From the IMG/VR virus record IMGVR_UViG_2876334352_000001: a stretch of 64,000 nt of DNA. One strand, 5' to 3'. This document shows, piece after piece, positions 9,331-40,250 of this stretch. Numbering within the stretch: position 1 is the first letter of the stretch; the number at the start of each line of letters is the position of its first letter. Origin of the DNA: a virus (taxonomy: Duplodnaviria; Caudoviricetes). A model generated the notes under the pieces. That model worked only from the letters and a program-made list of their open reading frames with translations. It had not been told where the DNA came from and did no database searches. Made by a program: the position numbers and the translations under genes.

Positions 9331-10757
9331 CAGCTATTCCCCTTCAGGGTTAACAGGTATTCCGAGGTGATCTCGGTCTCAAACGTCAGTCGCTCCAGCG
9401 GTGGTGGTGGCGTGTATTTGTAGCTCAGCAACAGGTGACCGGCGGCAAGCTCCGTCTCTTCGTTGCGGGCCGGATCAAACCAGCAGCTGAAGCCCAGCAG
9501 CGCACCGTCGCCAATCAGCTTGCGACCGTAGGCGTTGACCGACTCCGTCAGCGCATCAATCAGCGCCTGGGTAATCGGCATGTCGATGTACTGCTGGCTG
9601 AAGTAACGCAGGGACTCGTTGATCACATCACCGGTACGGCGAACGTTCTCAAAGTTGCGCATATGGGTGACCGTTGGCCATGCCGCCATACGGTTGCCCC
9701 ACAGACGCAGGCCGCTGCCGTAGCTGCTGAAGACCGTGGTGATGCCCTGTTCGTTGAGCAGGTTCACCTCGCTCTGCGGGTCGTCAATCATTGCCGACAG
9801 CTGGCGCTCCACGCCGGTGATACCCAGAATTTCCTGGTTGGAGGACGACCACCAGTAGCCCTTATCCAGGTCTACCTTGGCACGCAGACCTGCAGCACGC
9901 TGGCTCAGCGGCTCCAGCCGTTCGCTGTTGGTGGCCGCGTCGTACACCTTGACGTGCGGGTAGCACAGACGGACGCGGTCGGAGCTGGTATTGAAGTTAA
10001 TGGTGCCTTCCGGACCACGCCCTGCCAGAGCCTGCGCAAAAGTGGTACCAATCGGCGCGTCGATGTAGGTCACCGCGCCCAGCTTCTCAGCCATGGCGAT
10101 AAGCTCAACCGAGACGCTGTTCTGGGTGCAGAATACCGGGGCAATCAGAATTTTGGCGAAGTAGCCAAACAGGTTGAAGCTGTCGTTAAGCAGCTTCATG
10201 CCGGTACGGTTGCCTGCCGCGTTAACGGTACCGATGATATCAGCCGGGGTGACTTTGGTCGGATCAGCATAGTTATAGCTGGCCTTCACCGTTGCATCTG
10301 CAGCAATGCTTTTACCAAGGTTAGTAATCACCCCGGTCTGCGCATCAAGCGAGTAGTCCTGACCTTCCACATAAGGCTGACCGTCGCTGTCCGGTTTCAG
10401 TACCAGCTGCGCGACCACCGGATTAGCCAGCTGTGCCTTGCCCGTCGCCTTGTCGAATGTTACGTCTTCATCGGCCACAGCGGTTTTATGCACAGCTGGA
10501 TCAAGCACGTTAATGACCAGAACGGTGCCTGCCCCATGGTCGTAGATCGCATCCAGTGCCTGCGGAATGGTAAAGCCAGTGAGCTGGCTGCCAAACGCCG
10601 CTGCATCTTTCTCAGACAGGCACTGCACCAGCGTATTGACGTCTCCCATTGGGGCGGTACCAATCAGGCCAATGACGGCGGATTTCACCGTTTTAACCGG
10701 GCGGGCACCGTTTTCCACCTCAATGGTTTCGACGCCATGCAGATAGTTAGCTGACAT
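9330..10757 (-). CDS. Tail sheath protein (P2 FI-like)
   Basis: YLHGVETIE, WSSSNQ, GLRLWGNR, PPPLERLTF. Confidence 0.95.
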   Translation of the reverse strand: MSANYLHGVETIEVENGARPVKTVKSAVIGLIGTAPMGDVNTLVQCLSEKDAAAFGSQLTGFTIPQALDAIYDHGAGTVLVINVLDPAVHKTAVADEDVTFDKATGKAQLANPVVAQLVLKPDSDGQPYVEGQDYSLDAQTGVITNLGKSIAADATVKASYNYADPTKVTPADIIGTVNAAGNRTGMKLLNDSFNLFGYFAKILIAPVFCTQNSVSVELIAMAEKLGAVTYIDAPIGTTFAQALAGRGPEGTINFNTSSDRVRLCYPHVKVYDAATNSERLEPLSQRAAGLRAKVDLDKGYWWSSSNQEILGITGVERQLSAMIDDPQSEVNLLNEQGITTVFSSYGSGLRLWGNRMAAWPTVTHMRNFENVRRTGDVINESLRYFSQQYIDMPITQALIDALTESVNAYGRKLIGDGALLGFSCWFDPARNEETELAAGHLLLSYKYTPPPPLERLTFETEITSEYLLTLKGNS

Positions 10758-38683: not shown

Positions 38684-38914
38684 ATGGTATACCCGACGAA
38701 CGTCGTAGCGCTCGTTGAGAGCGATTTTCTGGCCAAAGTGCGCGACATGATGAAAGATCGCGATAAGGCTTTCAGTCTCTACGAATGGTCGCTCAAATGT
38801 CTTCATTCAGGCGAGCACAAAGAGCTGGTGGAGCAGCTGTTAGGGGAACTCATCAATGAGGTGTTTGCCCTGAACGTCCAGCTTCATGGTCGAGAAAATA
38901 ATCAATCGAAATAA
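38684..38914 (+). CDS. Hypothetical protein
   Basis: AAGGA SD; 76 aa. Confidence 0.7.
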   Translation: MVYPTNVVALVESDFLAKVRDMMKDRDKAFSLYEWSLKCLHSGEHKELVEQLLGELINEVFALNVQLHGRENNQSK

Positions 38915-38916
38915 TC

Positions 38917-38960
38917 GGTAAGTACTTACCATTTAAAACGCAGATCGCCAGTGATAAAAT
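38917..38960 (+). promoter_or_regulatory. Operator plus extended -10 promoter
   Basis: Perfect palindrome GGTAAGTACTTACC; TG-A-TAAAAT at 38952-38960. Confidence 0.65.
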
Positions 38961-38966
38961 CTACCC

Positions 38967-39400
38967 GCTTTCCGGATTGATTCCGGCAGCTCGACCTGAT
39001 GGGTGGGGGATAGCGTCACTGGCGTCAGGTTTAAAAAAGCTCACTACCAGCGTAGAACCGGCACCGTTTAGGGGTTGGGGAAGGGGGAACCAAAGTGAGC
39101 AGAGAGAAGGGTCACTTTATGATTGTCGAGTCTGGAGTGTTTCGAGAGGTTGAATCCAGTACTCCCCTTCATAAAGTGTGGGAAGATCTCGGTTCTGGGG
39201 TGCTGTCATCCATAACTTCCCAAGCCTAAGCTGGCAGTAGACTTAGGTCATAACTTTTCAGGTTATGTAACGACCAGGTTGGTGAGGAAATTTTGTACTC
39301 ACCTCCCTGGGAAAGTATTACCTGAAAAGACAACCTCTCACTTCGTTCGAGGTGAACTTCACTCACTTCGTTCGTTCAGTTCAGGTTTTATTAAAACCTG
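38967..39400 (+). ncRNA. Candidate large structured RNA upstream of RNase H
   Basis: About ten consecutive or nested stems found by eye; G-tracts; own promoter. Confidence 0.5.
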
Positions 39401-39507
39401 TTCTGGGAAGTAAGTTTTTCTTTTCTAAAAATTTTTAATATTTACACGCACGCGTGCGCACACGCGCGAGGAAAAAAATCGTCGCGGCGCGCGATTCTGG
39501 AGCCACC

Positions 39508-40107
39508 ATGACGACGAAGACACCAGACCGACAAAAAACTGGCTGCCGCTCAAAGTCCAAACGAAACCACTACCATCCCCAGACCCGATTCAAAACTCCC
39601 GCAGTCGACTTCAATCCCCACCTTAAAACCGTAAAAGTGTTCAGTGACGGCTCCTGCCTCAAAAATCCGGGCGGGCCTGGTGGCTACGGCATTGTGCTCC
39701 AGTATCGCGATGAAGAGCGCGAGCTGTTCGATGGCTTCCACAGCACCACCAACAACCGCATGGAAATGATGGGCGCGCTGATGGCTCTGGAGCGGCTCAA
39801 GTACCCCTGTAACGTCATTCTGTATTCGGACAGCCAGTATCTCAAAAACGGCATGACGCTCTGGATGAAAGGCTGGAAGCGCAACGGCTGGATGACGTCA
39901 GAGAAGAAGCCAGTGAAGAATGTTGACTTGTGGAAACGACTCGATGCGGCGGCCAGTCGACATAACGTTCGCTGGCAATGGGTCAAAGGCCATGCCGGAC
40001 ATCGCGAGAATGAGATCTGCGACCGGCTGGCAAAGATAGCCGCTTTCGCCGCAGCGGATACCCCACACAAACAAGATATCGGTTTTTTGGTTCAAAATGA
40101 TAAGTAG
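39508..40107 (+). CDS. rnhA: Ribonuclease HI with basic N-terminal extension
   Basis: [36 protein letters not shown]. Confidence 0.95.
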
Positions 40108-40250
40108 GTATTTACCTACCACGTTAAATCAGTTATCTTATCCATCGTCAGGATGACGAAGCGTCGGTAAGGCGCTGTTCCACGGATGGAACGCTCAAAG
40201 GCGGCTGGCAATGCCAGCCGCAACTCTTTCTGACATTGAATGGATTTCTC

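Follow-up and report, generated by a model that had tools for sequence, protein, structure and literature searches.

A conserved structured RNA gene of SSU5/pHCM2-type phage-plasmids, next to a variable cargo site

We describe an unannotated structured non-coding RNA gene in a window of 64,000 nucleotides (nt) from the virus record IMGVR_UViG_2876334352_000001, which from about 36.7 kb onwards is the backbone of an SSU5/pHCM2-type phage-plasmid. The gene lies on the + strand from 38967 to about 39413 (about 445 nt), has its own promoter and is followed by rnhA, a gene for RNase HI. Our analysis establishes its RNA nature, strand and fold, its expression in lysogens, its non-coding status and its independence of rnhA, and sequence comparison places it in a family that is confined to SSU5/pHCM2-type phage-plasmids and has no entry in Rfam. 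In a single judgment that includes these firm parts, we think it probable that this is a stand-alone gene whose RNA acts in trans or binds protein in the dormant state of the element. Phage-plasmids of this type are common in clinical Escherichia coli, Klebsiella, Enterobacter and Salmonella, and some carry resistance genes. As the RNA is the best-conserved sequence of the stretch compared, is expressed when the element is dormant and is found in no RNA database, it offers a handle on the maintenance of these elements or on their decision between plasmid and lysis.

The 544 nt from 38917 to 39460 are 100% identical to an Enterobacter hormaechei plasmid, and this intergenic query is matched in PLSDB by 688 plasmids of Klebsiella, Escherichia, Enterobacter, Salmonella, Citrobacter and Cronobacter, nearly all at an identity of at least 88%. 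Almost all of these carriers are predicted to be non-mobilizable, and those among the matches listed are mostly about 105-120 kb long. The RNA block is also present in 12 phage records (SSU5, Cyrano and ten others), and no match turned up when 401 species-representative genomes of the order were searched by a BLAST-type method.

Conservation, fold and coding potential of the RNA

Across 61 distinct loci, pairwise identity within the block 38990-39400 is 0.92-1.00, compared with 0.78-0.90 for both flanking coding sequences, and it falls to about 0.5 just outside the block. The single-sequence fold beats 100 of 100 shuffles on both strands, with z-scores of -4.5 on the + strand and -4.3 on the - strand. 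When 54 distinct homologues were compared, a fold of 127 pairs was paired in 99.5% of 6852 pair cells, which bears out the nearly continuous pairing over about 450 nt that an initial annotation of this region had read from the letters alone. Changes on both sides of a pair occur at 13 pairs (158 cells), and the covariation score is 0.106. Shuffles score 0.067, and none of 500 attains the real value; slid controls stay at or below 0.028, about a quarter of it. This covariation is located in six places (38967-38990, 38993-39031, 39039-39100, 39113-39178, 39224-39248 and 39375-39407). Helices kept by compensatory changes, together with the lack of a conserved reading frame, identify the block as a structured non-coding RNA. 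Its strand is fixed as + by 14 pairs that are G·U in most sequences and by 815 G·U cells in all, and only 87.9% of cells pair when the block is read as an RNA of the - strand.

The strand-specific G·U pairs and the compensatory changes that keep the helices also bear on whether the block is conserved as DNA, as iteron-like protein-binding repeats or a recombination boundary with incidental transcription. An invariant block contains two exact direct repeats of 12 bp at a distance of 25 bp, and the breakpoint of the cargo and a length-variable alternating tract lie just downstream, as such an element might have; but the RNA is abundant, and a boundary would not need 400 conserved bases. We consider an element of this kind very improbable.

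An open reading frame (ORF) of 44 codons (39095-39229, + strand), annotated as CYRAN_81 in phage Cyrano, lies inside the block and had been raised as a caveat to the RNA. The ORF is real in the window and open in most lineages, but it does not explain the conservation, because the frame is broken in at least five lineages (the L064/L058/L059 group, L025, L061/L062, L033 and L070) by indels of 1-2 nt at 39134-39140 or by in-frame stops, with nearly invariant nucleotides downstream of the breaks. Other ORFs of 44-58 codons (38977-39153 and 39279-39413) likewise span indel columns, Pfam has no match for the ORFs of the block, and the conservation exceeds that of real genes and lacks the decay at silent sites. 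That this or another small protein underlies the conservation is thus hardly credible, and even pooled with a DNA-level element it would be given little weight.

Searched against Rfam at gathering thresholds, the whole window gave 0 matches, including to the GOLLD, ROOL, OLE, raiA, transfer-messenger RNA (tmRNA), RNase P and 6S models, and cmscan of 38850-39560 with E values up to 10 gave only a chance match to a microRNA. Between 38000 and 41000, ARAGORN called neither a tRNA nor a tmRNA, and no description of the RNA was found in the literature or in Rfam. The initial annotation had offered a new phage non-coding RNA as one reading of the region, with covariation among homologues and cmscan against Rfam as ways to check it; both came out in favor of that reading, as do the conservation above the coding flanks and the promoter and lysogen transcript described below.

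The RNA begins with hairpin P1 (38967-38990), in which 5 of 8 pairs are changed on both sides; the sequence differs almost wholly between lineages, yet the hairpin always forms. It is followed by P2 (38993-39031), a hairpin of 15 pairs with compensatory pairs in 9, 12 and 8 sequences and one U·G pair replaced by U-A in 12 sequences, all cells being paired. Helix P3 (39039-39100) encloses a small hairpin and an invariant G-rich loop (39077-39087); one of its pairs changes from U-A to C-G in 13 sequences, and the columns of the G-run are invariant. A branched hairpin domain with a closing helix of 10 pairs (39113-39178, helices 8-11; one pair C-G to U-A in 3 sequences) precedes two hairpins at 39179-39222 and 39224-39248 (helices 12-14); at one pair of the second hairpin 15 sequences have U-A in place of C-G, and a G·U pair of this hairpin is replaced by G-C or A-U. 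Further on come a nearly invariant long hairpin of 23 pairs (39255-39328, helices 15-16) and a twin module (39334-39379) with a 12-nt repeat at 39338 and 39363, which is 100% invariant in the 54 homologues. As these two regions hardly vary, covariation is neutral on the folds of both. The 3' hairpin (39375-39407, helix 18) has one pair changed from U-A to G-C in 7 sequences, and all of these domains are on the + strand. Beyond the 3' hairpin come a short tail, which is conserved, and a U-rich run, which is variable, and hairpin and run together could be where the RNA ends, in a non-canonical way; the + strand has no called intrinsic terminator at this 3' end. All but one of the stems named in the initial annotation lie where it had placed them and are in the RNAalifold consensus; its twin stems with repeated loops give way there to an alternative pairing.

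Some further pairings were noticed along the RNA. A G-quadruplex in the P3 loop is unlikely, as only two G-tracts are conserved; the first tract (39071-39074) is broken in E. coli lineages, so a quadruplex of four tracts is not conserved. The same G-rich word of 7 nt occurs at 39179-39185 and at 39403-39409. In the consensus fold, 39216-39222 is the partner of the first copy, and the second, in the 3' tail, could possibly compete for the same partner as a candidate switch or pseudoknot. A second pseudoknot candidate would join the G-rich loop, at 39081-39087, to 39164-39170 through a match of 7 nt. The positions of these candidates are all invariant, which puts them beyond a covariation test.

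Promoter and expression in the dormant state

In a promoter scan, transcription was predicted to start near 38967 from an extended -10 element of the TGnTAnnAT type (38952-38960, + strand) with a weak -35 element at 38932-38937. The T, A, A and T of the -10 hexamer and the adjacent TG are invariant in the homologues, whereas the surrounding bases diverge; the extended -10 already proposed for this site is thus present, with its key positions kept in all lineages. The covarying 5' hairpin begins at the predicted +1. On the - strand, a consensus scan predicted no promoter between 38960 and 39800, which is a weak test limited to sigma-70 consensus sites, and the promoter scan predicted no separate promoter ahead of rnhA.

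Upstream of the promoter lies a perfect palindrome of 14 bp (38917-38930), with its center about 43 bp before the predicted start. Allowing up to three mismatches, the palindrome has 7 matches in the window, compared with 1.1 expected, and its core TAAGTA is at the same position in all lineages. Members of this family stand at gene boundaries of the backbone (37863, 38917, 40103-40120, 53643 and 61378), and another lies at 10319. Its recurrence at gene boundaries and the core kept in all lineages make the palindrome at 38917-38930 probably a regulator site, and the family is likely to be the site of one regulator for several early units. The palindrome had been called an operator, of which the recurrent, conserved palindrome stands; nothing marks it as a repressor operator, and the putative regulator could be a repressor or an activator alike.

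The RNA is made in dormant elements. In E. coli LF82 lysogens, CYRAN_81, which lies inside the homologous block, is 12-fold above the local background (PMC9928086, Table 1, S1), with log2 values of 6.8-10.35 across ten samples, compared with 3.1-5.8 for the upstream ORF and 2.6-5.0 for RNase H (PMC9928086). These values indicate that lysogens contain the RNA as a discrete and abundant species, which is not expressed together with rnhA. A search of the literature on pHCM2 transcriptomes found nothing useful.

Public RNA data gave a second view of the transcript, as about two thirds of the sampled words of a 721-nt query were present in nine runs. Three of the four runs examined gave a single long contig across the region, which is uninformative on transcript ends. 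The fourth, an ncRNA-Seq run, contains a small-RNA piece of 141 nt (39012-39152, + strand) with a contig depth of 4205, compared with 91 and 156 in the adjoining contigs (27-45 times). The right end of this contig runs into a 3' adapter in the sense orientation, a string that recurs in 788 papers and that we take to be the Illumina small-RNA 3' adapter. Joined in sense, the adapter gives an independent call for the + strand, and the contig suggests that the piece is an abundant processed fragment with its ends in the loops of P2 and P5.

rnhA and the cargo site behind the RNA

The RNA is followed by an AT-rich run (39414-39444), the least conserved part of the region (pairwise identity 0.49, many indels and variable length), and by an alternating purine-pyrimidine (CA/CG)n tract with an A-run (39445-39478), which forms the boundary of a variable cargo site. 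In the window this site holds rnhA (39508-40107, + strand), which encodes an RNase HI that carries a basic stretch of about 40 extra amino acids at its N terminus; residues 41-179 match PF00075 at 3.2e-46 over profile positions 3-140 of 141. The AT-rich run and the succeeding rnhA are as first described, with the alternating tract lying between them.

We found that the RNA persists where rnhA does not. Of the 130 loci in which the RNA is complete and followed by at least 750 nt of sequence, three (L148, L161 and L162) have no rnhA and two (L073 and L077) keep only its C-terminal half, and the RNA is 91-99.8% identical in these loci. In the three loci without rnhA, similarity to the window ends at about 39456-39478, just past the (CA/CG)n tract and the A-run; it resumes near 40015 in L148 and L161, and L162 has no downstream match in its 9.4-kb locus. 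The cargo of L148 (5790-8671) is a full-length TIR-NLR defence gene (PADLOC, 7.9e-166) and that of L073 (1065-2992) is JukA and JukB (6e-65 and 3.5e-12), both directly behind the RNA and in the same orientation, whereas the cargo of L161 (893-2394) and L162 (7601-9408) consists of ORFs on the opposite strand without an assigned identity. In PLSDB, a query of the RNA plus rnhA is matched over at least 80% of its length by 604 records, compared with the 688 that match the RNA query, and records such as H120 and H121 match the RNA part only, at 98.5% or more. Conversely, L063 (3001-3522) and L069 carry an rnhA that is 84% identical in protein, in a different phage context of tightly packed genes, where the RNA does not precede it; the long ORF expected for this rnhA is missing from the ORF list, and the gene may be broken.

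With rnhA replaced or truncated beside an intact RNA, and rnhA found elsewhere without the RNA, the site emerges as a hotspot for cargo and defence genes of which rnhA is the commonest occupant. By the evidence of gene content, rnhA is a neighboring cargo gene and not an obligatory partner of the RNA. The RNase HI had been described as dedicated to the RNA, which does not hold, and the idea of RNA and RNase HI as one machine is corrected accordingly. The site should be useful for mining defence genes.

The position of the cargo directly behind the RNA raises the alternative of a cis-acting leader that gates read-through into the site by attenuation, the abundant RNA being the terminated leader. 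The RNA level drops at least 12-fold between the block and rnhA in lysogens, rnhA has no predicted promoter of its own, and the TIR-NLR and JukAB genes are oriented with the RNA, as might be expected of defence genes that need expression in the dormant state. Against this, the RNA is 98-99.8% intact in L161 and L162, where the cargo ORFs lie on the opposite strand, its length of about 445 nt and its roughly nine domains far exceed what known attenuators need, its 3' end offers no canonical terminator/anti-terminator alternative, and one leader would have to serve unrelated cargo. A leader is therefore unlikely in our view, and we retain the reading of a stand-alone RNA gene.

The boundary itself shows some regularities. 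L148, L161 and L162 share a junction motif of about 25 nt right after the A-run. Alternation is kept in the (CA/CG)n tract (39445-39470) and its length varies, the tract being expanded in L062 and 10 nt shorter in L012; it behaves like a Z-DNA-prone microsatellite at the boundary of the hotspot. A minus-strand element at 39482-39494, made of a GC-rich hairpin with a T-run behind it, resembles a terminator for antisense transcription from the cargo site towards the RNA.

Possible roles of the RNA and its twin module

We propose that the RNA is transcribed from its own weak -35/extended -10 promoter, with a protective 5' hairpin first, folds into about nine helical domains and builds up during dormancy of the plasmid, some of it at least in processed form. 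It works independently of the downstream rnhA, which is one filling of a swappable cargo site, and its role may be that of a trans-acting RNA, regulatory or protein-binding, during lysogeny or plasmid life, with the twin-repeat module and the G-rich loop as candidate contact surfaces.

Several points weigh against this proposal. No function, partner or target was found for the RNA, and RNAduplex comparisons of seven loop segments with the 204 translation-initiation regions of the window did no better than shuffled queries. The ends of the RNA are predictions from the sequence, and the most conserved 3' half is invariant, which leaves the fold there without support from covariation. Expression was seen for homologues whose block is about 95% identical, carried by elements other than the plasmid of the window, and the ends and processing read from contigs are hints only, as contigs cannot prove processing. 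Lastly, the geometry of the locus among replication genes is compatible with priming. Apart from these points, a complement of the repeat (up to two mismatches) was found in no plausible place downstream in the window, and the nearest host genome contains the 11-mer complement 4 times, compared with 2 for the control.

Priming is the core of another explanation, in which the RNA serves a lytic origin: the transcript would invade the downstream AT-rich and alternating-tract DNA as an R-loop, RNase HI of the phage or the host would cut it, and the end would prime the leading strand. The neighborhood of the RNA consists of genes for replication and nucleotide metabolism (nrdB, thyA, DHFR, exonuclease and Dam), the order of promoter, folded G-rich RNA, AT-rich run and Z-prone tract would suit such an origin, and rnhA adjoins the RNA in roughly 88% of carriers. 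But rnhA is dispensable, even if host RNase HI could substitute for it, and the RNA is abundant and discrete in dormant lysogens and not only on induction. No antisense promoter of the RNA I type is predicted. The maintenance replicon of the carrier plasmid is typed as IncFIB in PLSDB and lies elsewhere, more than 9 kb from the RNA, and the 9 kb around the RNA contain no rep gene. The GC skew does not turn at the locus, which is a weak test in a mosaic window.

In oriF(uvsY)/oriG of phage T4, a promoter is followed by an easily melted AT-rich stretch in a region of replication genes, and a stretch that drifts in sequence, like the AT-rich run here, is allowed in a DNA-unwinding element (Kreuzer and Brister 2010, PMC3016281). 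The promoter and the unwinding element suffice in origins of this type, which need no specific transcript sequence or fold (PMC3016281) and so do not explain 400 nt conserved base by base, loops included, in an RNA made in the dormant state. The AT-rich run at 39414-39444 also lies about 450 nt from the promoter, behind a strongly conserved folded RNA for which the T4 model has no need. A likeness to T4 is added by the 45-nt twin module, which recurs in some T4-like phages beside uvsY and uvsW, where T4 has oriF; yet these T4-like loci are probably one orthologous locus, another myovirus has the module between tail genes, and the module is thus no evidence for an R-loop role. Taken together, an RNA-primed origin is an improbable alternative, and the RNA is probably not a replication primer cut by RNase H; the R-loop or primer-based lytic origin with its own RNase H, the other reading offered in the initial annotation, finds no support.

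The stand-alone RNA proposed here can be set beside other systems. ColE1/pMB1 RNA II likewise folds, measures about 450-550 nt, contains a G-rich segment and is transcribed towards an AT-rich region, with RNase HI involved or nearby, and it differs in the points already made: the RNA I-type promoter, the replicon and the need for RNase H. With ROOL, GOLLD, OLE and raiA, which are large structured orphan RNAs found in bacteria and in their phages and prophages, the RNA shares a length of several hundred nt, many domains, strong conservation, carriage on mobile elements and a role not evident from the sequence. ROOL and GOLLD are larger, the RNA matches no Rfam model, and it is restricted to one enterobacterial group of phage-plasmids, with its own promoter and regulator box.

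The c4 RNA of P1/P7, the CI RNA of P4 and the CA RNA of N15 are leader-derived immunity RNAs and are also products of RNA genes of plasmid-prophages, expressed in lysogeny and with repeated loops as potential seeds. The likeness extends to the genes behind the RNA: the order in SSU5 and Cyrano is Dam methylase, a 76-amino-acid ORF, the gap, RNase H and two small ORFs, and in SSU5 the anti-repressor gene comes next, so that the RNA lies upstream of an operon with an anti-repressor gene in the same orientation. The RNA is five or more times longer than these RNAs, has no Rfam c4 match and has no complementary targets in the 27 kb of backbone in the window. Type III toxin-antitoxin systems of the ToxI type resemble the locus in having a promoter, an abundant RNA, a partial stop and a protein gene expressed at about one tenth of the level; but there are only two 12-nt repeats here and no tandem array, and the downstream gene is an ordinary, swappable RNase HI and not a toxin of the ToxN/AbiQ type. 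New in this work are the adapter-based strand call, the 141-nt piece, the ORF test, the swapping of rnhA with the defence site and the twin module of T4-like phages.

The repeats of the twin module sit in a stretch of 60 nt that is invariant in all homologues, and two folds compete for them. In the local fold, drawn in the initial annotation, the first repeat copy lies in the loop of a 4-bp hairpin, whereas RNAalifold prefers the second copy paired with 39344-39355 and a long-range pairing of 39102-39112 with 39333-39339 that closes the central domain. A scan of IMG/VR for two repeat copies within 5-30 nt found SSU5-type loci and unrelated AT-rich phage contigs with the same 11-nt loop and different stems of 4-6 bp. 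This recurrence of the local hairpin with different stems in unrelated phages favors the local fold of the first copy. One T4-like copy differs at four spacer positions, one of which is a compensatory stem change, and matches SSU5-type phages at an E value of 7e-9, the only matches among 50,697 phage records. Judging by these comparisons, the match between the SSU5 and T4-like modules is real but unexplained.

In the T4-like contigs, which form four related lineages, the module lies in a long intergenic region beside a small ORF, uvsW and uvsY; in the other myovirus it lies between tail genes. There is a slim possibility that the twin module is a portable unit exchanged by phages, which would recruit a shared factor, of the host or the phage, for RNA-DNA hybrids or RNA 3' ends, with the SSU5 RNA as its delivery scaffold. 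The contexts behind this idea are RNase HI in SSU5-type elements, the R-loop helicase UvsW in T4-like phages and the other myovirus, and the loop is an 11-nt pyrimidine-rich sequence.

Other occurrences of the repeat were of mixed kind. As a universal motif it was mostly rejected, since its more than 120 metagenome loci are mostly (TTCG)n microsatellites or tandem arrays; only 31 of 218 metagenome instances (14%) lie in stems of at least 4 bp, the figure at random positions being 2%. In bacteria, the repeat is flanked by housekeeping genes that are unrelated to one another, no link between the module and tRNA genes could be confirmed, and the 12-nt repeat was not found in the literature in a relevant sense. 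The module loci are L094:9032-9245, L144:1880-2111, L135:1103-1137, L248:560-706 and L257:4528-4563, and the layout is a fixed 11-nt loop on a variable stem, a second copy and then a U-rich tract. T4-like contigs sometimes have two module copies on opposite strands, about 140 nt apart, and L094 and L144 share a conserved non-coding core between the copies.

The first part of the window (1-36700) differs strongly in composition from the second half, with 55-60% GC and then an island of 35% GC near 33-37 kb, so that the window is a mosaic of phage-plasmid backbone and other mobile DNA. Earlier notes place an IS1-flanked phosphoethanolamine transferase in this first part.

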